Shown here: piece after piece, positions 17,558 to 63,325 of the stretch
How positions within the stretch are numbered: position 1 is the stretch's first letter
Layout: every line of letters begins with the position of its first letter
Translations under genes and position numbers: made by a program
Origin: Eledone cirrhosa
Taxonomy: Eukaryota
NCBI GenBank assembly: GCA_964016885.1
Contig: OZ024742.1
Coordinates: 154,194,001 to 154,258,000, forward strand
Reading direction: 5' to 3'
Length of the DNA stretch: 64,000 nucleotides
Notes under the pieces: generated by a model
What the model was told of the DNA's origin: nothing
Databases searched by the model: none
The model's input: only the letters and a program-made list of their open reading frames with translations

Positions 17558-20500
17558 GGCGACCTACGTAGGAAATCATATCGTGAGCACCGCAAAGGTT
17601 TGTTGTTTTCAATTGTTTCAAATTGCCAGTTATATCTGTTGTTAAGTGCTTATAAGTTCACATATATTGCTTTCTGAAAAGGACACTCAAAACATATTGG
17701 GGTCTGTGAGCCCAACATTTAAACTTTTTATTTATCAAACAAAATATTTCTTTAAAAAAAACATGGACGACAAATCTCCTGTTTTTAACAGACCAACATA
17801 TCTCCCCCCACCACCACCAACATCATTGTAAGCCTTGCCACGGTTGCCAACACTGAAAATATAATTAATAGCAGTCTCAATTATTTAGATTTGCCGCATA
17901 AAGACATGGATTTCACGCCATTACGAATAACTGCAGGTGTTAAAGACGCCACCTCACGACCACAATGTCAAAAAGAACAACGAACACCACTGACACCACC
18001 ACAACAACAGAACCACCCCCACAAAAAAATAAAATTGTTATCTCGTGACATCGAAATGGATTCACCCAGAATCGACTCTTCCACATCGAACACCACTGAT
18101 ACCACCACCACCTCCACCATAACTGCAATTAAAAATAACAATAACAAAAATAACAATAACAAAAGCAACAGTAACAATGAGAATAACAACAACATCATCA
18201 ACACCAGCGCAAAACAAAATGTGACGTTTTCCAAAGCAGCTAAGAAAAGCGAAACAATCGAGGTAAGCCAGGATCGTTTAAACGAAGCCAAGCGAATGGT
18301 ATTAAAAGACGGGTACGAGGTCAGCCCCCCCTCTTCTAATAAAATGGAGGATCGGCGCCTATGCACCGTCTCATATCGGACAATAAAACAAAATAACAAC
18401 GAGTGGAACGGGCACCCGAGTCCCAGATACAAAAAGCCTTGGGACATGTGTGAGCGAAAAAAACTCACATCAGACGTGGGCAAAAAATGGAAACGTGAAC
18501 GTGTTCTTTGGAACCACACAGGAAGCCAGATAGCACTCCATGGCCGCATTAAGAAGTAACTTGTCCTAAGCTATTGTGGTTAGAGACTCGTGAAGATCAG
18601 AGTGACCCACGTTCCACCGGCCATCGAAATTCCCTGGCTAATGGCTGCCGTCCTCGCCGGCATCGAGGCCAACACAAAAATAATTGAGATAACAAATGAA
18701 AAGCAGGATAACTGGTCCGGATCTGGGATGGAGCTCCTGATCCAAGCGGAACAAAAAAACATTGACAAAATTCCAGAGGTGATAGACCTCAATGACGGCA
18801 GACACCTCACCGTAATCGTTGAGGGTAGAAAGCCTAGGTGTGTCGTTTGTGGCGAAGGAACCCACCTAAAGGCTTTCTGCTCTCAGGCTAAAACGTTTAG
18901 GCCGTCTCACCTACTAACCCCAGTGACTCAACCATCAAAACCACCAGCAGCAGAAATGGCAGCAACAACTGTAGCAACAACAACAGAAGCAACTGTAGCA
19001 GCAACAGTAGTAAAACCAACACAACCACCACCCACCGCGCCAGAATTAGCACCAGCGCCTCCACCAGTCACCAGGCCACAAGCAAAATCAACGCCTGTGG
19101 AGGATCTTCCACTCCTCGACCCATCCGAACTGAAGACAGATTATGACGATGAGTAGGAGTGGGAAATGGTATCAGGATAAACGAAAAAGAAAAAAAAAAC
19201 CCCAAAGGAAAAAATCCCCTTCCATCGCCCGCCAAAATAAAATGCAGGGGGAAACAAATAAGTAAAGAAACAAAAACGTTAAGACATATTTGCCACCACC
19301 CACACCAGCATTACCAGCCGCATCACCATAGACACGAACGCCATCTCCATCATTAACCCCAACACCACCATCTCCAACACCACAAAAATTACCAAAAGGC
19401 GAAACAGAAACAAACCCACAACAAACGCAAACAAAACAAAGCAACCAAAACGATACACACTACACATAATTAAATTTGAACAACAACCAATTATTACACT
19501 ACATCCAACACAACAGCAGCATCACAGAAAAAGAGTACACAACATCCCACAAATTCACTCCACCTCCACATCATCTCCACACATACAAATCACTAGTATC
19601 ACACAGAAAACGTACAGGACACTAAAACAAATATTCCCCAAGGATATCGGAGAATTCCGAGAAACACTCTCCAGGAGGAGGCCACAAGCAGTGAGAAGGA
19701 TGGACAAACAATCCTTACCCTACGAGAAGTGAGGTAAGTGGTCTTTCCCATCTTTGTCTACTACTTTTCAACATGACCTCACTCAGAATAGGCAGCATAA
19801 ATGAGCATGGCCTGAGGTCGTCATAGAAGCAGGGCCAACTGCTCAACGACCTCAGGTCACTAAACGTAGATGTGGTGGCAATCAGTGAGACCAGAATCTC
19901 CGATGCACAAGCCTTTGCACCGATCTACTGCGGCTACGATGTGTACGCATCTCCCAACCGTCCTGGATCAGGTGGATGAGTTGCTGTGCTTTTTGGAGAG
20001 GTTTAGATCTCGCCCTACTGGCCATCTTCCTTGACCCAAAAGTTAAGCTGGTGGTGCTGGGCGTGACCAGCGGAGACAGGCAAGCTTTCAGGTTAGTTGC
20101 CGTCTATGCCCCGACAGGAGCAGGGCGGCCTGATTTTTTCCGGCATCTAGAGACCTTTCTTGGAACATCCCGCTCTTTAGTGTTAGTGGGCGACTGGAAC
20201 GGGATCTTAGATGAACGCTGGGACTGTATGGGATTAGCGGATAGGGGAGGAGGGTGCAAGAGCCTCACCAACCTGCTCAGGCGTTTTGAACTGTCTGACA
20301 GGTACCGATTGGATTTCCCGAATGTGCCAATGTGGACTTGGACAAATCACATGGGGTCATCCACATCATATCTAGATAGAGTATTTTGTAGAGAAATAGA
20401 TAGGTCTAGCATAGGCTGTCCACAATTCAAGATAGTCAGCTACACGGACCACAACTTCGTGATCTGTGTTCTTGACTTAGATAGGCTTCATAGACGAGTA

Positions 20501-23397
20501 CCCGGCTACTGGAAGCTAAACGCGTCCTTACCAGCGGGCAAGGCCTACAGAGACCGGATTAGCGAACTAGTTAAGCGGGCGTTGACGGGGGCAATTGTCA
20601 ACAACACGTGGTGGTTTACTCTGAAAAGAGCAATTAGAATAGAGTCCATTAGGTTTAGTAAGGCTTTAGCAATAGAGCAGAGGGAGAATTAGTTAGAAAA
20701 TTAGACGAGACGCTTAGCAAATGCATCGCGGCCGACGTACTTGCGGTGAAATTGGCCCTTGACCAATTCTTCAATGCAAAGCACGAAGGCTGCGTTGTCA
20801 GAGCTAGGGTGCGTGCTCTCAGACACGAGGGGACGAAAGCCATTCAATGGGCACGAGTGGCGGAGGCGCGTCGTGGCAACAAAGCCACGATCCAGTCTTT
20901 GATGGACCGCGACGGGCGCATGCTACTCGATTCCGGGCAAATATGTGAAGCTCAGTTGTTCGGGGGCAGTGGCGGGCCGGATCGATGGATGGACTTTTAT
21001 GTCTACCTCGACGGACTGCCGCGGCTGTCGGCCACTGAGGCAGAGTGTTGCGAAAAGGCGATAACAGCCGCTGAAGTACGGGAGGCAATGACTGGCTGCA
21101 CAAGGGGTAAATCGCCTGGTTTGGATGGTCTGCCCTATGAACTTTACGTACAGATGCCAGACTTGTTCGGAGGTCTCTTGGCGGACGTCTACTGCAACTG
21201 GCAACAGAACGGGAGAACTCCTATCTCTGTGAGCCGAGGAGCTGTGGTGTTACTGAGAAAGTATCCGAACAAGGGGGATAACATAGATAATTTTAGGCCC
21301 ATAACTCTGCTAAACACAGAGTTCAAGATTTTCGCCAAGGTGCTAGCAAAGAGGTTGGCGCTTGTCGTTGGTGGTCTGGTGGGAGAGGCGCAGACATGCC
21401 CCATTCCCGACAGATCAATCCATGACAACCTCCACCTCATGCGATACATCGTAGAGAGGGTAGCTTGGGTACCTGACACGGGTGGGTCCTTGATCAATTT
21501 AGATCAGTCGAAAGCTTTCGATAGGTTCGACCATCGTTACCTAGCTGCAGTTCTGAGGGCGGCTGGCTTTGGGCCCGTCTTCAGAGGCTGGATCGCTGCC
21601 ATGCACAGCGACATCTGGTCTGTGGTGAGTGTGAACGGTCACCTTTCGGAACCGTTCAACATCATGCGCTCGGTCCGCCAAGGATGTCCCCTCTCGTCCC
21701 TCTTGTACGTATTGACTCTCGAGCCATTATTGCACAAACTGGAGACGTTGAGGGTGGTCCCGCGCGAACTAGGATGCGGAATATCCGTGTCAGCATATGC
21801 GGACGATGTCAACGTAGTGGTGTCGAACGCTAAACACATCGAGGCGATCGGCACTACACTAAAAAATACGAAGCGGTGACAGGAGCAATGATCAACCAGA
21901 AAAAGTCAGTGAGCCTGCAGCTCAGCACCTGGAGAGGCAGGTCCATGCCGTCCAACAGCGTCGTCGGGCGCTGGACGGACGGACCAGTTAAATTGCTCGG
22001 GGTCTGGTTCGGTCCGGATTTTCCAGACGGACAAAAACTGGGACGAGGTGACGAGCAGGGTGGCTTCTCTCACCCAGAAATGGGCCCAGAGGAAGCTATC
22101 CCTGAAAGGTCGAGCGGAGGTGACTAACGCGTAAAATCGCGTCCGTCATCTACTACCGCCTGACCCTCGTACCTTGTCCTAAGCCCCGTCTGACTGCGTT
22201 GGATCGTTTACTCTTTCGCTTTTTGTGGAAGACACGCGCTCCGATAATCAGACGGTCCATCTCCTATCAACACCCACTACGTGGAGGGCTGGGAATGCCG
22301 TGGCTGATGATGCGCAGACACGCGCTCAGGCTACGACATCTCCACCTCTTCCTCGACGGTGATCAGGTGTGGTCTCTGTTTGCTAGATGCGTCTTTCCCC
22401 AGCTCGTCTCCTTGACGGAGCTGCAGTCCCGGGTCAAGCGAAGACCGAGAGGGAGCGCTTGAAGACTGGAATGTCTTCAGGCGCTCACAGCCCTCCACCA
22501 ATCGGGCAATGTGATAGTTGAAAGCTCCACCTTGGCGTTCTATAGAGAATTTGTGGAGGGGAAGAGCGGCGACGTACTTGGGGAAACTCTAGGCGTCGTC
22601 GAAAAGCAACAAGCCAATCTCTTCGGAAGAAATTTCGGGCCGGGGCCTATGGACAACTTCCAGAAATCCCTGGCCTGGCAGTGCTACTGAGGAGCTTTGA
22701 CAGTTCGGGATAAACTCTACAGGCATGGAGGTGCCGTCAAGCGGGCATGTCCGAGATGCGTGCAGGGCGACGAAACCGTCCTGCACGCATTCGTCCAGTG
22801 TCCGCGCATTGCTGACTTGTGGGTTTATGTCGAACACCTGCTGTCGCGTGTGGGACGGATCCGGCGTGAGGATTGCCCCGCCCGTTTCCTTTACCAGGGA
22901 AGGGCAGGCAGTTTTTATCTGCCTGGTGGCCATGGCGAAAGATATAGTATCGTGGACACGTTTGAAAGGGCTGAAGACGAGCACTTACCTCTTCGGTGAT
23001 GCCCTGATTAACTTTTTCAAATTTCATTTGAAAAGGAAAATCAGGGTAGAAAGGGATGTGCTCTCTTCCCAGCATTTTGTTGAAAGATGGGTGAGAGAGG
23101 CAAGAATGGCCCGAGTGAATGGGCCTACTCTGAGTATGTGTCTGTAAATTAAAGGTGGAAAACTGGGAGAGGGCACTTGCCCTGGTGGTCAGGGTCACTG
23201 TGGCTTTTTAATGGCCTTTCTCCACGAATATCCCTCGGAAGTCTCCCCCCTATTGGGGAATTTTTTCATTGTTCTATTATTACATCCTCTGTTTCTTGTT
23301 TTTTTTACACGCAGAAATGCCCATTTGTATTGCCCTGTATTGATATGTACTGTCCTTAATGTCCACTTTATGTAAACCCTTGTGGTTAATAAAGATA

Positions 23398-23440: not shown

Positions 23441-24209
23441 GCTTTTCTAATCTGAAGCATAAGACCATCAATTTTAGAAGAAGGCAATGCTGGTTAGATT
23501 GACGCTAGTGAATTTATTTCAATTGTAATTTATGAACTGACCACGGAATAATGAAAAATGGACATCTGCAGGATTAAACTCTGTATTTAAAAAAAAAACA
23601 AAGCATAAGGTAATGATTTTTATCTGACGCTGTAAAATTCTACCATAATCGGATAGATATTTGGGATTAAAATCAGAAAGACCGATTAAAGATTACAAGC
23701 AATGTAATCTGGAATCACCAGTTGACATCAAATCCAGACATCGAATCGAAGAACGCTATTCTTACACTAAAGAACAACTACCCAAAACACAAAATTAAAA
23801 CTTCGTATAAAAATATAAACTGTAAATTATGTTTAACATTCCATTCCATAAGGTAGAATATAATAAATAAATTATAAAAAGAATGAAAATCCAGAATTTT
23901 CTTAAGTTGGTTCAGGAACTGGAATTCACTGAAGAAAATGTTCACACTTCATACTAGAGAAAACTAAATGAAGTTGAAACCAAAAAAATTGTGTATCCCT
24001 GTGCTAGCTGAACAGTGTGAATATATTAATTTATACAAGCTCGGTGATGTAAAAGAAACTATGCGTTTAGGAAAATCGCACGCTTCCCAATTGACCTTAC
24101 ATCTATAATTAACTTAAGGATGTGTAGTGCTTCATTTAAAATCTTATATTTAATTATATAGAAACACATATACGTGAAAAGACGCACGTGCATATATATA
24201 TATATATAT

Positions 24210-24251
24210 AATCAAGGTTTAGCAGTTAAAACGACCAAATGTTATCTCGAC
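24210..24251. repeat. Internally deleted remnant of the 62117-63010 repeat unit
   Basis: aatcaaggtttagca is joined directly to gttaaaacgaccaaatgttatctcgac. Both halves occur about 320 bp apart in the 62 kb unit. Confidence 0.7.
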
Positions 24252-24269
24252 GTATATATATATATATAT

Positions 24270-24431
24270 AGCGAAGGGAAAGTGGTAAGGAACCAGGTGG
24301 ACCATAACGCACCAAAGTACTCAATACTTAGGGTAGTAGAGTGGGTAATAGGAGTAAGTAAGACCCCGACGGCTGAGTACAGAATTAGCCGTCGAAACGG
24401 CTTGAGCTCAGCCGTCGGGGTCTTACTTACT

Positions 24432-24434
<3 letters not shown>
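24270..24434. mobile_element. Family G element folded back into a hairpin
   Basis: ataggagtaagtaagaccccgacggctgag ... ctcagccgtcggggtcttacttactcctat. Left part matches 48981-49090 and 52040-52078. Confidence 0.82.
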
Positions 24435-24486
<52 letters not shown>

Positions 24487-24488
<2 letters not shown>

Positions 24489-24790
24489 TACCCGTTAGAC
24501 CTGTGCGAAATTCCTTCCTTGCTCACATTTCAACCAGGTTTGATGGTCTTTATTCTCTCGTTCACGATTTCGCCGAGTTTATATTCATAGAAATCTGGGA
24601 CTTGTCTCTTTCTTCTCACTTTCTGTTGCTTAAACCATTTTGTTTGTTCACCCTAACGTTCTCTTTATTTACGTGTCCCAACGACTTTTTTTTAGCCGTT
24701 GTTCGCACCAACCTGAGGTATATGGCCCTTAAAGCGATGAAATGCCTAGGACGATTGGAGGGTCACTGATGAAGGACTTACTTTTTCATA
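24487..24790 (+). mobile_element. Family A copy 2
   Basis: Reverse-complement homolog of 2889-3190, flanked by (TA)n. Confidence 0.82.
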
Positions 24791-24845: not shown

Positions 24846-25096
24846 TTATTTCCGGTTGAATCGGAGGTAACCACAGTAAGTAATGTACTCAATACATAGC
24901 ACAGTATAAAAGTTTTAATATAGATGAGATTCTACAGGACTAGAACTGTTTCATTCTTTAGAAATCTTCAGGATGATTTCTAAAGAATGAAACAGTTCTA
25001 GTCCTGTAGAATCTCATCTATATTAAAACTTTTATACTCTACTATGTATTGAGTACCTTACTTACTGTGGTTACCTCCGATTCAACCCGGAATAAC
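24846..25096. repeat. About 250 bp palindrome centred on a partial hammerhead core
   Basis: Arms pair around about 24970. Minus strand reads CUGAAGA-uuuc uaaa gaau-GAAA-c..g-UC. The 5' strand of stem I is missing. Confidence 0.8.
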
Positions 25097-31960: not shown

Positions 31961-34215
31961 CTAGCTGACGTACCCAGCTTCGCCCGGATAAACAGATGAT
32001 AAGAGAATACAGGTAATAGAGAAAATGACTGTATTGGACGTTTTCTGGTTACAGTATGTAGCGAGTCCGTGGTGTCGGTGTGATACAAAAAACATAAAAA
32101 AAAAATCTTCCATATATATCAGCTTCTTCGTTTACCGTGTGTACATAGTATATGAAAAGTTCTAGGTGCTCACACCTAGAATAGTGACCGCTAGGAGATG
32201 GTTCATCTTCTGCCTGACTTTAAATCGTGTACCATTGCATAAACGTGGTTGTTCCACGTTTCTCAAAAGAATGATGGTAGTTCCAATATTTTCTATTATA
32301 TGTAGATATAGACATAGATAATGAATATAAAAGATGTCCGTCAATGTAAAATAGGTCCCTATTTACTTGAAATGGCTTATACAAATGCCAAATTAATATG
32401 GATATGAATAACATGCTTATCTATAAGTGGTCAGCTATAATAATTGTTTCTGCTTTTTGGCACAAGGCCAGCAAATTACCCAGTACATTACTGGTACTTT
32501 ATTTTATCGGCCGTGTAAGGATGAAAGGCAAAGTCACCTCGACGGGATTTGAACTCAGACCGTAAATGGACGTAACTATGCTGAAAAGCATGGCGTCCGA
32601 CCCTCTACCGACACTGCCAATTCACCGCCCTCAGCTATAATAATAAAACAACAAATTATATGACACAAAAATGTATTCAGTAATTTCCAGGCTCTTAGCC
32701 ACTGAGTAATAGATAGTCAATATTGCACAGAGTTCACTCGGGGAGATGGCCTGGTTTGAATTCCAAATGGCGGATCCTTCTACTTCGAAAATAGAATCGT
32801 TTTTCAATATTACTCAAGCCCTTGCCGGCCATAGGCACCAAGCCTTTTGCCAGACACAGCATATGATGAGGTTTTATTACAACCGCTATCATAAGCGATA
32901 AATTTGAAGGCAATTTCTACCAATACTTATTGGTATTTATTGCGTAACATAGCAGTCAAAGCAATTTTTACCAATACTAGTTTGTTTTTATTGCTCATAA
33001 CGACATTAAATGACATTGAACATACATGATAACTATGTCAAAGCTCACAATACTGATTAAAGGACACCAATGTCCGATTCATTTACGTCGCTTATTATTA
33101 GCATTAAAGATATGCATACATCAACTCAAAGCTTCATTATAGACACTATTCAGTGTTGTTCCTCTGTTAGTGGTATCGATTCCACATTTTACACGATCAG
33201 GATCGCACACTCGAGAAGCAGCAACATACAGTTGCCGATGGCTGAATGCTGGATCATTCAAGTAAACACCGACTAGCTTGAAAGTCTGTCCCTGTGCCTT
33301 GTTAACAGTCATGGAGAAGGCCAAATTTACGGGAAACTGTTTACTTTGCCAAATAAATGGTTGCAGATCTCTACTTGGTCTCAGCATGATCCTCGAAATG
33401 AGAACAGATTCCTCTCTGCCTGAGAGTTTAGCTTCTAAAACTCTTCCGTTAATCAATCTCTCAACAATAAATCAGGTACCATTGCAAAGACCCATTTTAT
33501 GATTGATATTTTTAACCTTTTTCAACCTCAAAATAAGTGGGGGGCAATCCGGGTATTTGAAGTGAATTCAGATACTCAGTCGGAACATCCATATTGTTCT
33601 GCTGATTAGGCTGCATCGTATCCGCACTGACGGTCAACCATTCCTCTCCAGGAAACATTCCGGCTACTTGTGAATTTATTTCATCGACCGTTGCATTCGT
33701 ATGAGTTAGAATAACGCGTTCCGATATCCAGGAGATATTCAGCCAAAAAGCATTCAAATTAGGGAACACCCAGTCAATCAATGCTTGGCGGTCCAGTGGC
33801 ATGACCAAATGGTCTGGGATTCTTACAGTCTGATTATCACCAACGTGTGGCAATTCATCGTTTCCCATCTACATCAATCATCGGCTGTATGTATCAGCCT
33901 TTTAGATTTGCCCGAAAATACGAAGTCGTATATTATCGTGTAATCGCAAAACTCTGAAATGGCGCCAGAACGGAGACTTTTTCAGACATGCATCGACAAT
34001 TGGCGCTCTTTGAGCATTCCTAACAATTGGTAGCACGTGTCTGAGAACGATAGTCTTACCACCGAATGGCAGGTCACTACCGCAGATATCTCTCAATGTT
34101 CTGTCCAATGCCTCCAGCAAATTTCTGTGGGCCATTGGAGCCTCATCCCAAATAATCAGAGACGTATTGCATGCTCATTTACTCGGACCATGCTTGACTC
34201 TTTCACATATCTTTC
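31961..34215 (-). mobile_element. Helitron remnant: Pif1-family helicase pseudogene and 3' CTAG terminus
   Basis: MAHRNLLEALDRTLRDI..PFGGK, ILTHTNATVDEIN, QFPVNLAFSMTVNKAQGQT..QLYVAASRV, plus a second LLRN..PRLCNGTR fragment at 32162-32344. Minus strand ends ccgggcgaagctgggtacgtcagCTAG|T at 31961. Confidence 0.85.
32445..32630 (-). mobile_element. tRNA-derived SINE with 14 bp TSD, inside the Helitron
   Basis: TSD tcagctataataat at 32431-32444 and 32631-32644. Confidence 0.9.
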
Positions 34216-40529: not shown

Positions 40530-41426
40530 ACTTTGGGAGGGTCATGTTGCCAATAAGAAACACACGCACCAGTGTCTTCACTTAAATTTATTATAATAAA
40601 TTTATAACTTTAGGAATTTATAAATTTCCGGTTGGTTAGTTGGTTCCAGAACCAGATGGTTCTTTATAAATTGTCAAATTCTTTCATCACACATTATGTG
40701 ACCTCTTCAGTGACTGGGGGTTCTTTTCTTTGTTGTTTGTGCCTCTCCTCTGTTCTGTCCTACGCCATCTTGTTTTTGTGTGTGTGTTGTGTGCTTAGTT
40801 TGCGCATGTGTTACATCCGGGTGTCTGTGTGTGTTTCTATTCGTTTATTTATTTGTTTATTTACATGTTACTGGTTGGTTGTTTGTTCTATGTGTGTGTG
40901 TGTTTTCATTTTGTTCTTAATTGTAAGTTGTCATGTTGCTGTTCTACTCGTGTTTTCTATTTAATTTTGGTTGTAATTCATTTATTTTTATTGCCTCTGT
41001 GATTTGTCTAAACATTGCGTATTTTCTGTGTGTAGATTCTATTTTTATTTCTATGTTCTCTAATTTACCCTTATGTTCTATTTTAGCATGTTAGTAGAGT
41101 ACAGATGATTCTTTACTATCTTGAAGGTCTCGCCAGTGTTCATTTATCCGTTCCCCTATACTACGAGCTGTCTCACCTATGTACACTATAATTTTATCTC
41201 TACATTGTCCTTTAGTACATCTTATGCTATATACTACATTTCTAGTTTTACAGTTAATACGGGGGCTTAATTTACAGATTATACATTTCTTATCTATACA
41301 GGGCGGTCTTTGAAAAGGGTATGTCTTGCTAATAAGTGTTTTTATGGAGGTACCTGCTCTTTCTACTATCTTAATATTGAGTTTATGTTCATCTAGGGCC
41401 CTTCTAAATTTGTAAGCTAATTCACC

Positions 41427-41430
<4 letters not shown>
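40530..41430 (-). mobile_element. PLE 3' end: GIY-YIG endonuclease (absent from the ORF track), 3' UTR and HHR
   Basis: Manual translation from 41428: ...IKIVERAGTSIKTLISKTYPFQRPPCIDKKCIICK..NCKTRNVVYSIRC..C..VYIGETARSIGERINEH. (TA)n at both ends. Confidence 0.88.
40672..40715 (-). ncRNA. Minimal hammerhead in the PLE 3' UTR
   Basis: guca-CUGAAGA-g gucacau aau gugugau-GAAA-gaa-UU-ugac. Degenerate relatives at 49955-50000 and 53640-53685. Confidence 0.62.
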
Positions 41431-41486
<56 letters not shown>

Positions 41487-47099: not shown

Positions 47100-48520
47100 C
47101 ACAGATAATTCTATCATGCCATTTGGAGGGAGGAAGGGATGGCTAAACTTATCTGTAGAACAATAGAGGAGTGCGTGGTGCGGACAAGCGTTGAAAGTGA
47201 TATGTATACAGCAGATTCTAAGGATAGTGTATGAAGTGGAGGAGGGAGGTTATAGAATAGGTAAATCGAATGAGAGTAGGAGACAATAAAAGATAATAGA
47301 AAGAAATAAAAAAAATATATAAAATTAGATAGAGAGAAATGAATTAAAAAAATCACAATGCTATCTTACAATTACAGGTTAATAAGTTGAGAATAGAAAA
47401 ACCATGTAAAAATTGAATAGTACCAGAACTGATACAAAATTAATGGAGTTTAACACGTCTGCTATAAGTAGTTAGTAAAACGTATTCGGCCAATTCTATC
47501 TTAAAATTACAGGGGTGGGGAAACTGATGCTACAGAGGCCCAATGGGCTGCATCGGGGTAGGCGTAAGGTGAAAAGCAGAGGAGGAAGGAAATAGTGGGT
47601 GGAAGGAAGTGATAGGATGAGACAGGGGAGAAGAAGACAAAGAGGAAAAGTAAAGATGGGAGATACATTTACCTAAGTAAGCTGGGGTTTCCCCTAACTT
47701 ATTCGGCAAGTGTGGGGGGGGGGGTATCAGCCCTTGTCCACCACCCGGGTCACTATGGGGTTTGCGCGCGAGGTAAGTGCTACGCAATCTGTGTTTGCAT
47801 GAGGTTACCAGTTCGTCTTTCTTGTGAAGGGGTTGTTCCTTCGAAAATAGCATTTGTAATGTTTCCTCCGAGCATAAGTTACACGGACGGCTTCCTCTCG
47901 TATAAGAGATAGCTCTGGACAGTAAGCTCCAAGTGAGTTTGTAGGTTATATTATTATCTTGGAGGTGCCAGATGTGGCCCGAAAGTGTAGTGGCATGTCG
48001 CCGGACCGGGTTTCGGAAAGTATGTCGGTGCTGGTAGAGTCGGGTCTTGAAGTCACACGCGGTTAATCCTATATAAGCTTTGTTGGAGGTGTCCGTCCTC
48101 ACGTTGCACTGGTAGATCACGTTACGTTCTTGGCATTTGTTGTTGAGGGGGCACGTAGATCTATCAGGGCAGTTACAACTCCTGGTCGTCTCTCCACTGA
48201 TGTCTAGGTTATTTCTTCCATAGGGGTTGAGTTTTTTGTTGTTTGAGGAGACGACGTTTTGTGCGAAGTTAGGTGTGGTGTTGTAGGAGAGTTTGATGGT
48301 ATTTTTGTTGATTATGTTGTGGTAGCGGTGTTGTAGTGGGAAGTGTTTTTCGAAGTGTCTAAAGAAGATTTTCCCGATAGGTTTTGCCACGTCGGCATTA
48401 TGGGGAGGATTGAACCACGTTACCTTGCATTTAGTGGCGGTGTCGCAAGCTGGTTCCGCTAAGAGAAGTTGTATAAAAGGATATTTCCGCCCGGAAGCCA
48501 CTCCGCTTGAGGGCATGGTT
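47100..48520 (-). mobile_element. Naiad-type PLE 3' half (GIY-YIG region open) and 3' UTR
   Basis: ORF 47530-48516: VTWFNPP, NTIKLSY, CNC..CPL..C, NVIYQC..YIGLT..FKTR..QH, CNLC..E, CKHR. Paralog of 1-1300. Confidence 0.9.
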
Positions 48521-48544
48521 GTCTATATGTATATAATACTACTA

Positions 48545-48880: not shown

Positions 48881-49165
<285 letters not shown>

Positions 49166-49544
49166 TTGACTCAAACTAATTAGTTTCTGTAAGGGGATAA
49201 ATATGGTTACCTAGCGTATTCATAGAGAAGCCTTACGTCATCGGGGAGTCTATTCTCAGCTAAGCTTCCAGGCAATAATTCAGTGGATGGAAAAAAGCGA
49301 GTGGGGGCTAGATTCCAAGACATTGAAAAATTCACTGCCTACTTGGTTAAGTGGCAAATTCAGAAGTATCTATCACGTGACACTGAGGTTAATCAGCTAG
49401 GAGTGGGGGTGCTATTAAGACAGAGCCTAGCCCCTACTATTAATCACAGTACTAATTTCGGCAAGTTTTGCTCAACAAATAATTTGGAGATAATTATAAA
49501 GAATTAGTATATCTACCAACATATGTTGGTAGATATACTAATTC

Positions 49545-53726: not shown

Positions 53727-56700
53727 ATCTGTGGAGGATTTTCCAATCCCGGCCTATCAGAACTGGAGAGAGATTGTGACGATGAGGAGTGGGAAACGGT
53801 ATCAGGAAAAAAGAAAAAAAAAGAAACCAAAAAGAAAAAAATTCTGTTCCCTCCCCCTCCAAAAACAAAATACTGAGGGAAACAAATAAACTATCAAACA
53901 AAAAAGTTAGGACAGATATGCAACCATCCACACCAGCATCACCAACTCCATCACCACAAACACCAACACCATCACCATCATTAACCCCAACACCACCATC
54001 ACCAACACCACAAAAGTCCCCAAATAGCGAAACAAAAACAAACCCACAACAAACGCAAACAAAACAAAACAACCAGAACGATACACACTACACAACATTA
54101 AATTTGAACAACAACCAATTACACTACATCCAACACAACACCAGCATCACAGGAAAAGACTACACAACAACCCAAAATTTCACACCACCTCCACACATAC
54201 AAGTCACTCGCATCACACAGAAAACGTACATGACACTAAAACAAAAATTCCCCAAAGACATCGGAGACTTCCGACAAGCACACTCCAGGAGGATTTATAA
54301 GGACATCATTCCTGAGGAGGCCACAAGCAGTGAACAGGATGGAGAAATCGTCCTTCCTCTTCGAGAAGTAAGGTAAGTGCTCTTTCCCATCTTTTCCACT
54401 CTATTTCAACATGACCTCACTCAGAATAGGCAGCATAAATGCGCGTGGCTTGGGGTCGTCATGGAAGCAGGGCCATCTGCTCAACGGCCTTAGGTCACTA
54501 AACATAGATGTAGTGGCCAAGCGAGACCAGAATCTCCGAAGCACGGGCCTTCGCACCGATCTACGGCGGCTACGATGTGTACGCATCTCTCAGCCGTCCG
54601 GGATCGGGGGGAGTAGTTGCTATGCTTTTTCGGAGAGGTGTGGATCTTGCCATACGGGCCATATTCCTGGACCCTGAAGGTAAGTTGGTCGTGCTGGACG
54701 TGACCAGCGGAGACGGGCAAGCTTTCAGGTTAGTGGCCGTCTATGCCCCGACAGGAGCAGGGAGGCCTGATTTCTTCCGGCATCTGGAGACCTTTCTTGG
54801 AACGTCCCGCTCTTTAGTGTTAGTGGGCAACTGGAACGGGATCTTAGATGCACGCTGGGACTGTGTGGGATTAGTGTATAGGGGAGGAGGGTGCAAGAGA
54901 CTCACCAACCTGCTGAGGCGTTTTGACCTGTCTGACAGGTACTGATTGTATTTCCCGAATGTGCCAATGTGGAATTGGACAATTCGCATAAGGTCATCCA
55001 GATCATATCTAGATAGAGTATTTTGTAGGGAAATAGATAGGTCTAGTATAGGCTGTCCACAATTCAAGATAGTCAGCTACACGGACCACAAATTCGTGAT
55101 CTGTGTACTTGACGTAGATATGCTTCATAGACGAGGACCCGGCTACTGGAAGTTAAACGCGTCCTTACCAGCGCACCAAGGCCTGCAGAGACCGGATTAG
55201 CTAACTAGTTAAGCGGGCGTTGACGGGGGCCATCGTCAACAACAAGTGGTGGTTTGCTCTGAAAAGAGCAATTATAATAGAGTCCATTAGGTTTAGTAAG
55301 GCTTTAGCAATAAAGAAAAATAGAGCAGAGGGAGAATTAGTTAGAAAATTAGACGAGGCGCTTAACAAAGGCATCGCCGACGTACTTGCGGCGAAATTGG
55401 CCCTTGACCAATTCTTCAATGCAAAGCACGAAGGCTGCGTTGTCAGAGCTAGGGTGCGGGCTCTCAGACACGAGGAGACGAAAGCAGTTCAATGGGCCCG
55501 AGTGGCGGAGGCGCGTCGTGGCAACAAAGCCACGATACGGTCTTTGGTGGACCATTACGGGCGCATGCTACACGATCCCGGGCAAATGTGTGAAGCTTTT
55601 CAGCGACACTTCGCACAGCTGTTCAGGGGCAGCGGCGGGCCGGACCGAGGTATGGACATTAGTGTCTACCTCCACGGACTGCCGCGGCTCTCGGCCACTG
55701 AAGCGAAGTGTTGCAAAAAGCCGATAACAGCCGCTGAAGTACGGGAGGCATTGACTGGCTGCACAAGGGGTAAATCGCCTGATTTGGATGGTCTACCCTA
55801 TGAACTTTACGTACAGATGACAGACTTGTTCGGAGGCCTCTTGGCGGACGTCTACTGCAACTGGCAACAGAACGGGAGAACTCCCAGCTCTGTGAGCCGA
55901 GGAGCTATGGCGCTGCTGAGAAAGGATCCGAACAACGGGGGATAACATAGATAATTTCAGGTCCATAACTCTGCTAAACACAGAGTTCAAGATTTTGGCC
56001 AAGGTGCTAGCAAAGTGGTTGGCGCTTGTCATTGGTGGTCAGGTGGGAGAGGCGCAGACATGCGCCATTAGCGACAGATCCATCCACGACAACCTCCATC
56101 TCATGCGATACATCGTAGAGAGGGTAGCTAGGGTACCTGGCACGGGTGGGTCCTTGATCAATTTAAATAAGTCGAAGGCATTCGATAGGGTCGACCATCG
56201 TTACCTAGCGGCAGTCCTGAGGGCGGCTGGCTTTGGGCTCGTCTTCAGAGGCTGGATCGCTGCCATGCACAGCGACATCTGCTCTGTGGTGAGAGTGAAC
56301 AGTCACCTTTTGGAACCGTTCAACATCATGCGCTCGGTCCGCCAAGGATGTCCCCTCTCGTCCCTCCTGTACGTATTGACTCTCGAGCCATTACTGCACA
56401 AACTGGAGACGTTGATGTTGGTCCCGCTCGAACTAGAATCCGGAAGATCCGTGTCAGCATATGTGGACGATGTCACCGCAGTGGTGTCGATGGCCAAAGA
56501 TATCGAGGCGATCGGCACTACACTAAGAGCATACGAAGCGTTGACAGGAGCAATGATCAACCAGGAAAAGTCAGTGGGCCTGCAGCTCGGCACCTGGAGA
56601 GGCAGGTCCATGCCGTCCAACAGCGTCGTCGGACGCTGAACGGAGGGACCGGTTAAATTGCTAGGGGTCTGGTTCGCACTGGACCTCTAGACGGACAAAA

Positions 56701-58070
56701 ACTGGGACGAGGCTTCTCTCACCCAGAAATGGGCGGAGAGGACGCTTTCCTGAAAGATCGAGCGGAGGTGGCTAACGCGTACATTGAGTCCATCATCTAC
56801 TACCGCCTGACCGTCGTACCTTATCCTAAGCCCCGCCTGACTGCGCTGGAGCGTTTGCTCTGTCGCTTTTTGTGGAAGGGACGCGCTCCGATGGTCAGCC
56901 GGTCCATCTGCTGTCAACACCCGCTACGTGGAGGGCTGGGCATGCAGTGGCTGATGATGCGCAGACACGCGCTCAAGCTACGACATCTCCACCTCTTCCT
57001 CGATGGTGATCAGGTGTTGTCGCCGTTTGCTAGACACGTCTTTCTCCAGCTCGTCTCCTTGACGGAGCTGCAGTCCTGTGTCAAGCGAAGACCGAGAGTG
57101 AGCGCTTGGAGACTGAAATGTCTTCAGGCGCTCACAGCCCTCGACCAATCGAGCAATGTGATCGGTGGAAACTCCACCTTGGTGTTCTATAGAGGATTAG
57201 TGGAGGGGAAGAGCGACGACGTACTTGGAGAAACTCAAGGCGTCGACGAAAATGAACTAGCCAATCTCTTCGGAAGGACTTTCGGGTCGGGGCCTATGGA
57301 CAACTTCCAGAAATCCCTGGCCTGGCAGTGCCTCGAGGAGCTTTGCCAGTTCGGGATAAACTCTACAGGCATGGAGTTGCCGTCAGCCGGACATGTCCGC
57401 GATGCGCGCAGGGCGACGAAACCGTCCTGCATGCACTCGTCCAGTGTCCGAGCATTGCTGACTTGTGGGTTTATGTCGAACACCTGTGTCACGTGTAGGA
57501 CGGATCCAGCTATCAGCTGAGACCATAGCGAGGATTGCCCCGCCCTCTTCCTTTAGCCGGGAAGGGCAGGCAGTTTTTATCTGTCTGGTGGCCATGGTGA
57601 AAGAGATAGTATAGTGGACACGTTTGAAAGGGCTGAAGACGAGCACTGACCTCTTCAGTGATGCCCTGATTAACTTTTTCAAATTTCATTTGAAAAGGAA
57701 AATCAGGGTAGAGAGGGAAGTCCTCTCTTCCAAGCATTTATTTGAAAGATGGGTGACAGTGGCAAGTATGACCCGAGTGAATGAGCCTTCTCTGAGTATG
57801 TGTCTGTAAATTAAAGGTGGAAAACTGGGAGAGAGCACTTGCCCTGGTGGTCAGGGTCGCTGTGGCCTTTTAATGGGCTTTCTCCACAAATGTCCCTCGG
57901 AAGTCTCCCCCCTATTGGGGAATTTTTTATTGTTATTTTTTATTACATCCTCTGTTTTTTTTACACGCAGAAATGCCCATTTGTACCGTCCTGTATTGTC
58001 CTGCACTGTCCTTAATGTCTACTTTATGTAAACCCTTGTGGTTAATAAAGAAATCATTGTTATTATTATT
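53727..58070 (+). mobile_element. 5'-truncated Tx1/L1-clade LINE, same family as 17558-23437
   Basis: Aligns from about 19095 onward: ORF1 tail, APE, RT (YVDD), Zn finger, AATAAA at about 58044 and (ATT)n. Confidence 0.93.
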
Positions 58071-62079: not shown

Positions 62080-62119
<40 letters not shown>

Positions 62120-62186
62120 CAAGGTTTAACAAATAAGAAAAAGTTTCAAAATAAATTTCAAAAAAATCACTGTACTTACTATTGTT

Positions 62187-62273
62187 ACCTTTACTGAATC
62201 GGTTTCGAGCCTCAAAAATAAATGGACAATCATTGCGGCCTTCCATTGAAAAGATAAACTCTCGTCAGAAGGT
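62187..62273 (-). ncRNA. Hammerhead ribozyme, tandem twin with a stem III mismatch
   Basis: ACCUU-CUGACGA-gaguuu..aggcuc-GAAA-ccg auu cag-UA-AAGGU. Confidence 0.75.
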
Positions 62274-62670
62274 TCTTTTCACTTGGAGAATATAAAATTC
62301 CCGAGTTAAAATTACGAACTGGCGCTATTCAAAATTGTTCCCGATTTGAGAATGAATGATGTGGAAGCAATTCTGTCCAGTGCCGGGTGTAAAGATGGAA
62401 GCAGAGCCAGGGAGGTCAGTCTACTACCTCTATAAATAGCAGTAGTCAAAACGACCAAATTTTATCTCGACCAAAAGACGAATAATAATAATAAAGTATA
62501 TATCCTACACGCAAAAAGCGTATAGGGTCACATGTATTGTCCAAACATATGCCAATGTGGTCCAATGGCAGGTTAATAAATTAACGAGCCACAACATATA
62601 TAATCAAGGTTTAGCAAATAAGAAAAAGTTTCAAAATAAATTTCAAAAATTCACTGTACTTACTATTATT

Positions 62671-62757
62671 ACCTTTACCGAAACGGTTTCGAGTCTCCAA
62701 AATAAATGGACACTCCTTGCGGCCTTCCATTGAACAGATAAACTCTCGTCAGAAGGT
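62671..62757 (-). ncRNA. Canonical type I hammerhead ribozyme
   Basis: ACCUU-CUGACGA-gaguuu..aaugga..uccauu..agacuc-GAAA-ccg uuu cgg-UA-AAGGU. All three stems pair. Confidence 0.88.
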
Positions 62758-63029
62758 TCTTTTCACTCGGAGAATATAACATTCCCGAGTTCAAATTACG
62801 AACTGGCGCTATTCAAAATTGTTCCGGAGATGAGAATGAATGATGTGGAAGCAAATTTGTCCTGTGCCGTGTGTAAAGATAGAAGCAGAAGCAGGGAGTT
62901 CAGTCTACTACCACTATAAATAGCAGCAGTCAAAACGACCAAATTTTATCTCGAGCAAGAGGAGGTTAATAATAATAAAGTTATATATATCCCTACACGC
63001 AAAAAGCGTATATATATATATATATAAAT

Positions 63030-63260
63030 ATTCGTTCACGATTTCACCGAATTTAAATTCATAGAAATCTGGGACTTGTCTCTTTCTTCCTCACTTTCTG
63101 TTGCTTCACCATTTTGTTTGTTTACCCTCGCGTCCCCTTTATTTACGTGTCCCAACGTCTTTTTTTAGCCGTTGCTCGCACCAACCGGAGGTATATGTTC
63201 TTTAAAGTGATGAAATGCCTATGATGGTTGGAAGATCACTGATGAAGGACAAACCTTTTT

Positions 63261-63262
<2 letters not shown>
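63030..63262 (+). mobile_element. Family A copy 3, truncated
   Basis: Matches 24558-24790, flanked by (TA)n. Confidence 0.82.

Positions 63263-63325
<63 letters not shown>

Follow-up and report, generated by a model that had tools for sequence, protein, structure and literature searches.

The question raised by this locus is what kind of element the tandem repeat near the end of the analyzed DNA represents, and how it came to be inserted there. The repeat lies within a window of 64,000 nt of the genome of Eledone cirrhosa (contig OZ024742.1), which is the whole stretch of DNA that was analyzed, and consists of two head-to-tail units, each with a hammerhead ribozyme motif on the minus strand. 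We consider it to be an old insertion of a non-coding non-LTR retrozyme that was likely copied by the reverse transcriptase (RT)/GIY-YIG protein of a Penelope-like element (PLE), probably of the Hydra clade, and we put the probability of this reading at roughly 0.78. On every testable feature the element behaves as a metazoan non-LTR retrozyme, with self-cleavage and a circular RNA as predictions from this assignment. The retrozyme class itself is known, and the locus is a decayed member of an abundant family; what appears to be new, judging from sequence comparison, is a covarying stem II of 48–55 nt combined with a predicted pseudoknot. The features of the locus are as follows:

62083..62117, no strand: (TA)n target microsatellite that flanks the element on its 3' side (in the sense of the hammerhead strand)
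62117..62600, minus strand: full 484-nt unit; 62117 is the fixed 3' end S1 of the family
62187..62273, minus strand: type I hammerhead, predicted cut 62192/62191
62481..62491, minus strand: position of the second fixed 3' end of the family, S2 (unit positions 365–375, 111–121 nt beyond S1)
62601..63010, minus strand: second unit, 410 nt, 5'-truncated at approximately unit position 410
62671..62757, minus strand: type I hammerhead, predicted cut 62676/62675, with a full core, a 4-bp stem III and a 55-nt interrupted stem II
62731..62738, minus strand: 5' side of the internal loop in stem II, which would form strand a' of the predicted pseudoknot (second copy at 62247–62254)
62758..62765, minus strand: strand a of the predicted pseudoknot, the purine-rich 5' flank of stem I (also at 62274–62281)
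63009..63025, no strand: (TA)n on the 5' side of the element

Between the two (TA)n runs lie 1.85 direct units (484 + 410 nt) on the minus strand, with a start-to-start spacing of 484 and a global identity of 375/414 columns (90.6%). The initial annotation had described a tandem 484-nt unit bounded by two minus-strand type I hammerheads, and the measured spacing agrees with this, as do the predicted cuts, which are 484 nt apart. The GUA triplet, the 5-bp stem I and the long interrupted stem II described at the same time were recovered in both motifs, which share the core CUGACGA...GAAA (at 62752–62746 and 62268–62262), place H17, the A of GUA, at 62676 and 62192, and have 55 nt between the core halves. 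The hammerhead cutting at 62192 is damaged in its distal cap and has a C.A mismatch at 62195 in stem III; the one at 62676 has a single mismatch in the predicted pseudoknot (62735), at which the other copy has an intact strand a' (62247–62254). With lesions in both ribozymes the window dimer may not release a monomer, and as a decayed copy it is a poor construct for a cleavage test. Each copy differs by approximately 5% from the main consensus (typical members differ by approximately 3% from theirs), and both contain a rare variant that is present in 6/173 pieces. From this comparison of sequences, the dimer is one old insertion of which each copy has since drifted by approximately 5%. S1 at 62117, 75 nt downstream of the cut site, would be the point at which reverse transcription started; S2 is not used as an end in this insertion.

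The host genome was covered in 3.0 Gb (1796 contigs), in which a 25-mer from the hammerhead gave 598 exact matches and its reversed control none, excluding chance; a second exact pattern gave 670 matches, again with no control matches, and a first-look search returned 2800 candidates, of which 40 were scored. By capture-recapture (overlaps of 12/30 and 11/30) the main subfamily comprises at least approximately 1,650 units. The repeat is dispersed at high copy number, with a unit length of 484–485 nt and a GC content of 0.36–0.38, and forms four subfamilies among 93 near-full pieces, with further subfamilies at 72–85% identity. For the anatomy of insertions we used 115 distinct loci with duplicates removed, a sample that is not random as it was drawn from top BLAST hits, the first pattern matches on contig C1, hand-picked multi-copy loci and deletion variants. 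These comprise 69 single arms, 36 inverted pairs and 10 complex loci. Arms longer than one unit are common (62/165), arms longer than two units are rare (3/165), and the longest measures 1148 nt (at most 2.4 units); two full hammerheads in one arm were seen in 6/34 loci sampled by position. The long tandem arrays for which the initial annotation had suggested a search were thus not found in this sample.

The unit is non-coding, in line with the absence of an open reading frame (ORF) and the (TA)n on both flanks that were initially reported. ATG ORFs in tripled consensus units of the subfamilies reach at most 38–84 aa, the RT and GIY-YIG ORF of an autonomous PLE is absent from the unit, and no arm at the 115 loci continues from the unit into an ORF. 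In the four loci read for this purpose, PLE ORFs beside units are separate insertions, split off by microsatellite. Occurrence solely as the pseudo-LTR (pLTR) of coding PLEs, named at the outset as evidence against a retrozyme, was not what we observed at these loci, and the proposed non-LTR-retrozyme-type family is borne out by its dispersed, head-to-tail, non-coding units with one hammerhead each. The core is intact in 127/153 pieces and decays in inserted copies at approximately the rate of other sites (0.021 vs. 0.026). A search for short-stem relatives gave 10 matches, all of them family members with deletions or belonging to the A2 subfamily. Loci L090, L092 and L093 all lack the same 18 nt of stem II between direct repeats, suggesting mobilization of a variant that already had this deletion. 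An internally deleted fragment of the family is also found in the window at 24204–24251 between (TA)n, where unit positions 1–16 are joined to approximately 325–355 via a 5-nt microhomology.

A scan with the Rfam hammerhead model, which had been proposed as a check, gave no match on the window, nor on 62100–63300 at E-values up to 10, and the long stem II is likely the reason. Families with such a long-stem pseudoknotted hammerhead are therefore probably under-counted. A covariance model built from other copies scored both window motifs at 118–121 bits, as homologs do by construction. Stem II consists of a proximal helix, a pyrimidine-rich internal loop, a distal helix and a cap. The main unit aligns co-linearly, at 45–51% identity, with the units of two sister families, C (526 nt) and D (485 nt), and the sister families likewise form tandem units of 485–526 nt; like the main family, C and D have 48–55 nt in stem II, and the fixed ends of D lie at 96 and 203 nt. 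A model built from the main family alone finds the sister hammerheads with E-values between 1e-8 and 0.03. Across the sister families 18/21 hammerhead pairs show two-sided changes, including the distal helix of stem II, and 94.9% of the cells in the hammerhead alignment pair, against at most 48.5% when slid, in an alignment that was fitted to the model and with a relatedness of the sequences that inflates the shuffle test. Conservation of the core and helices by compensatory change at 45–51% identity points to selection on the ribozyme fold. Further loci hold families D (485-nt unit), E, F and G (L189, L118:2831-2925, L237 and L239), with the same predicted pseudoknot. A copy of family C (526-nt tandem unit) is present in the window itself at 49158–49470 on the minus strand, with the same long-stem hammerhead (49164–49259), a GUU triplet and, in that copy, a mutated core.

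In folding predictions, the circular consensus on the hammerhead strand folds better than shuffled sequence (z of -3.7 to -7.6 for four consensus units, 12 shuffles each; -2.0 for the window unit), with 58–67% of the predicted circle paired in the four consensus units, and the opposite strand likewise folds better than shuffles. When flanks of 30 nt are included, a structure other than the hammerhead has the minimum energy, and the hammerhead lies above it by 2.0–5.3 kcal/mol for the consensus (four units), by 8.6 for the window copy 62676 and by 13.1 for the window copy 62192; with short flanks the consensus hammerhead lies 1.0–1.2 kcal/mol above the ensemble (two units). Under constrained folding the window copies lie 7.7–13.1 (copy 62192) and 4.9–8.6 kcal/mol (copy 62676) above the ensemble.

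The initial annotation contrasted the stable stem III of this element with the minimal PLE hammerheads elsewhere in the window. The latter are indeed present as minimal type I motifs that lack a real stem III, like those at the ends of PLEs (36165 and 53337 on the plus strand, 3643 on the minus strand), but a real stem III is not unusual, as the hammerheads of Hydra-clade PLEs also have one (PMC8557442, File S2). A hammerhead-like motif with a short stem II and a long stem III adjoins Hydra-like ORF pieces at 24917–25016, and also at L231 and L242. A further TA-flanked repeat of very high abundance occupies 63026–63262 and approximately 24490–24790 and has a CTGATGA box close to its end; its copy at 63026–63262 sits in the same microsatellite as the retrozyme. 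Judged by eye from the ORF list, the window further contains broken retroelement ORFs of two PLE types and two LINE-like copies, plus a Helitron-type helicase fragment (810–2037, 47530–48522, 41091–41483, 17789–23147, 53786–57685 and 33121–33868).

How the units were inserted can be read from their ends. On the hammerhead strand the 3' ends are fixed and the 5' ends scattered across the 115 loci. S1, at unit position 1 and 75 nt after the cut site, is the start of 64/69 single arms, and TA adjoins 56 of these 64. S2 falls mostly at unit positions 365–375, which is 186–196 nt downstream of the cut site. Of the inverted loci, 29/36 combine an S1 arm with an S2 arm, and the others pair S1 (five loci) or S2 (two loci) with a different end; the same end was never used twice (0/36). 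The 5' side lies at (TA)n in 53/69 single arms, and the remaining 16 have no common extension at the break. A pile-up of 5' ends at the cut site was considered and rejected, as only 8/165 arm ends fall at unit positions 70–80, two of which come from loci selected for a change there.

The combination of 5' truncation, an inverted arm, a tail at one end and a (TA)n target is that of PLEs, whose insertions are described as truncated, partly tandem and biased towards (TA)n, with an inverted arm and with the tail restricted to one end (PMC8557442). For the PLE protein PAc, cutting of both strands of AT-rich DNA and starts of reverse transcription at two internal sites downstream of the hammerhead are reported in vitro (PMC11167929), and by analogy we infer that the two-start mechanism of PAc applies to the 485-nt family too. 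The insertion anatomy thereby backs the suggested mobilization by PLEs, although sequence homology of the unit to the pLTR of a PLE, by which Li et al. recognize PLE-derived retrozymes, was not found with the two Hydra-type PLEs examined in this genome.

The template of these insertions is constrained by variants shared within loci. Subfamily sites agree in 903/962 direct and 642/710 inverted comparisons, where chance alone would give a proportion of approximately 0.6. Sharing of rare variants was seen in 29/11,797 direct columns, eight of them from locus L125, which is probably a local duplicate, and in 11/7,746 inverted columns, compared to 13/92,955 between similar loci. On this evidence from sequence, the units and arms of one insertion derive from one template sequence. 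The base after the cut site differs in 8/678 copies (six substitutions, one internal deletion and one inversion junction). As a linear cleaved monomer would give only 75 nt from S1, the template was a circle or an uncleaved multimer, and the shared variants and the read-through of the cut site fit both alike. We lean somewhat towards the circle, since even very diverged families retain the ribozyme fold and no long array that could act as a source came to light. Marks of A-to-I editing were sought on the hammerhead strand of the 115 loci, where there was no excess of A>G (0.0115 vs. 0.0134 for T>C) and no hyper-edited piece.

An uncleaved multimer underlies the alternative that survives best, namely that the family is a non-autonomous PLE derivative made from uncleaved multi-unit transcripts of a few source arrays, with cutting rare and no circle intermediate. 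Arms are short and lack ends at the cut site, and in the text of PMC11167929 uncleaved RNA is the dominant substrate of PAc, with the hammerhead dispensable in vitro. A few differences between units moreover recur with one polarity (position 61 in three loci, reversed in none), but such differences are few and several fall within homopolymer runs. The conservation of the core and all helices by compensatory change across families only 45–51% alike speaks against rare cutting, as does the failure to find a source array longer than 2.4 units, and we regard this alternative as doubtful.

Under the preferred reading, a retrozyme copied by a PLE protein, a multi-unit transcript would self-cleave at its hammerheads and the monomer would likely be ligated into a circle. 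The PLE protein would cut (TA)n and prime reverse transcription from two DNA ends, starting at two internal sites 75 and 186–196 nt downstream of the cut site and copying through the cut site for up to approximately 2.4 units. Truncation at the 5' side, or joining of two cDNAs, would then yield single arms or inverted pairs.

In the predicted active ribozyme, an additional helix (a/a') would be formed between the purine-rich flank 5' of stem I and the complementary 5' strand of the stem II internal loop. A helix of 4–8 bp in the same register was found in 22/22 lineage representatives with one mismatch allowed; these representatives are related, and 9/22 come from a pattern that requires strand a. 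The own pairing of a and a' beats 2000/2000 permutations; at the family level 61/18,694 reach it, and within clade A the p-value is 0.0012. In 13 representatives, one more having been dropped for a mutated core, own strands pair with a mean duplex energy of -5.6 kcal/mol, compared to -3.5 when strands of different families are combined and -1.6 to -1.8 with control strands. In an unmodified MAFFT alignment 86.8% of the a/a' cells pair and 2/6 pairs change on both sides. The strands are of low complexity, purine against pyrimidine, with a mismatch in two subfamilies, and individual shuffle p-values range from 0.003 to 0.43. As none of the bases in this helix is paired in the hammerhead fold, we read it as a pseudoknot between stems I and II, and the comparative evidence thus gives a base-paired link of these stems with compensatory change, as in pseudoknotted hammerheads. 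The hammerhead is accordingly predicted to be held in its active shape by this pairing of the 5' flank of stem I with the stem II loop.

The same helix might instead belong to an alternative fold that keeps the ribozyme off, for instance in the circle. It does form in minimum-energy folds that exclude stems I and II, including that of the circular consensus, and some block in circles is expected by Cervera 2020 (text of PMC7229834). ViennaRNA, however, cannot display the hammerhead fold and the a/a' helix together; the a/a' bases are unpaired in the hammerhead fold and the helix begins at the distal end of each of the two stems; pseudoknots linking stems I and II are described as common and as activating about 40% of hammerheads (PMC3088659). 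An inhibitory role is therefore unlikely in our view, and an activating pseudoknot is kept as the preferred reading.

Two intact Hydra-type PLE families are present in the same genome, with proteins of 784 and 785 aa that are 39% identical. Each has two fixed ends at (TA)n, which lie 83 nt apart in the 784-aa PLE (38 and 55 ends) and 118 nt apart in the 785-aa PLE (20 and 16 ends), compared to 111–121 nt in the retrozyme unit. The 785-aa PLE is a young family with intact ORFs (L285, G000:C2:84134000-84142000); its hammerhead is of type I, with 91 nt in stem II, and its ends lie 45 and 163 nt after the cut; the predicted pseudoknot is, by eye, absent from it. Intact tandems of the 784-aa PLE are found at G000:C1:437.2 Mb (L222). 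The 3' half of a hammerhead is visible in this PLE, for which a standard upstream core was not found; the 3' end of this PLE also occurs in the window at 48978–49157 and 24281–24435. Neither family has DNA homology to the unit, and the retrozyme RNA model gave no match belonging to either of them, in 30 loci each plus the intact tandems. With no homologous PLE among the two Hydra-type families examined, the partner is suggested by its footprint, and on that footprint the 785-aa PLE is the best candidate mobilizer. Because Pfam did not recognize any of three PLE proteins, the Hydra label rests on a likeness by eye to the Hydra-1_Obim rows in PMC8557442. The neighboring PLE 3' ends in L041 and in the window are, by eye, of a different, minimal type.

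Alternatively, the units could derive from a coding PLE outside the sample, as its truncated 3' ends (pseudo-LTRs). The anatomy of the ends is the same as in PLEs, most PLE insertions are 5'-truncated (text of 10.64898/2026.07.22.740005), and 115 loci of more than 1000 were analyzed. The arms that pass unit position 485, however, re-enter position 1, the single arms end at (TA)n or without a common extension as given above, PLE ORFs nearby were split off where inspected, and the sister families are tandem units as well, so that we consider a pseudo-LTR origin quite improbable. A birth of the window dimer by local DNA duplication of a single inserted unit is more improbable still, for although Li et al. 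(10.64898/2026.07.22.740005) propose local amplification and the window copies are 9% different, arms in the family begin at a fixed phase and stop at scattered points, the S1/S2 rule of inverted arms already makes such an origin unlikely, and the shared rare variant and equal drift of the two copies are as expected of one old insertion.

A more far-reaching reading, which we put forward only tentatively and which may well prove wrong, is that these retrozymes of approximately 485–526 nt form an old, co-linear clade at approximately 50% identity, with a hammerhead architecture of its own, in which the internal loop of the long stem II forms a pseudoknot with the 5' flank of stem I, and two-ended PLE priming on circular RNA from two structure-defined starts that mimic those of Hydra PLEs. 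If true, a retrozyme and a young, intact enzyme would be matched within a single genome, and in vitro tests could address the circle-template model of how retrozymes move. For animal retrozymes, mobilization by PLEs has been proposed from co-occurrence and pLTR similarity, with the mechanism not shown in the text of PMC7229834 or 10.64898/2026.07.22.740005. The insertions described here record the two-start PLE footprint quantitatively, and an intact PLE of matching spacing in the same genome makes the proposal testable with purified protein.

Our literature search, which covered texts and few supplements, gave no report of a cephalopod retrozyme, of the 485-nt family or of its pseudoknot, and the text of an octopus repeat annotation (PMC13282606) has no mention of a ribozyme or retrozyme. 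Compared with metazoan non-LTR retrozymes as described in PMC7229834 and 10.64898/2026.07.22.740005, which include those of coral, mussel and axolotl (PMC7229834) and of vertebrates (10.64898/2026.07.22.740005), the family, known here from genome sequence alone, has the same head-to-tail non-coding units with a type I hammerhead each, a GC content under 45% (here 37–38%), a self-paired predicted circle, thousands of copies and coexisting PLEs. Its unit length is inside the 51–972 bp of Li et al. (10.64898/2026.07.22.740005) and above the 150–450 bp of Cervera (PMC7229834). It differs in its short arrays, in having a 48–55-nt stem II and a predicted pseudoknot instead of the usual 4-bp helix II and loop contacts, and in its two fixed ends and inverted arms, which are not described for retrozymes in the text of either source. 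Cleavage was reported for 1/9 predicted Xenopus dimers (Li, Clavereau, Pollet 2026, 10.64898/2026.07.22.740005).

With endonuclease-containing (EN+) PLEs, as described for the Hydra clade (PMC8557442) and for Poseidon PAc (PMC11167929), the family shares insertion at (TA)n, truncated 5' ends, partial tandems and inverted arms, a tail on one side and, downstream of the hammerhead, a pair of fixed ends. A short real stem III is found in Hydra hammerheads as well, which cut after GUA, GUU or GUC (PMC8557442), and a long helix II with a short helix I is given as typical of the minimal hammerheads of PLEs (PMC4209133). The unit, in contrast, has no ORF and no homology to the PLEs examined, and its tail is 111–121 nt, compared to 30–40 nt in described PLEs (though 83 and 118 nt in the two Hydra-type PLEs found here). 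The predicted a/a' helix resembles that of pseudoknotted hammerheads (PMC3088659), where 4–8 bp likewise connect stems I and II at their distal ends. For the HDV-like RNAs of toad and termite, whose hammerheads are of type III, one strand of the pairing comes from an internal loop of helix I that is capped by an extra hairpin (PMC7936874); in the family described here, in an arrangement not found in the main text of PMC3088659 or PMC7936874 and predicted to mirror the latter, the capped internal loop lies in stem II and its partner is the 5' flank of the open stem I of a type I hammerhead.
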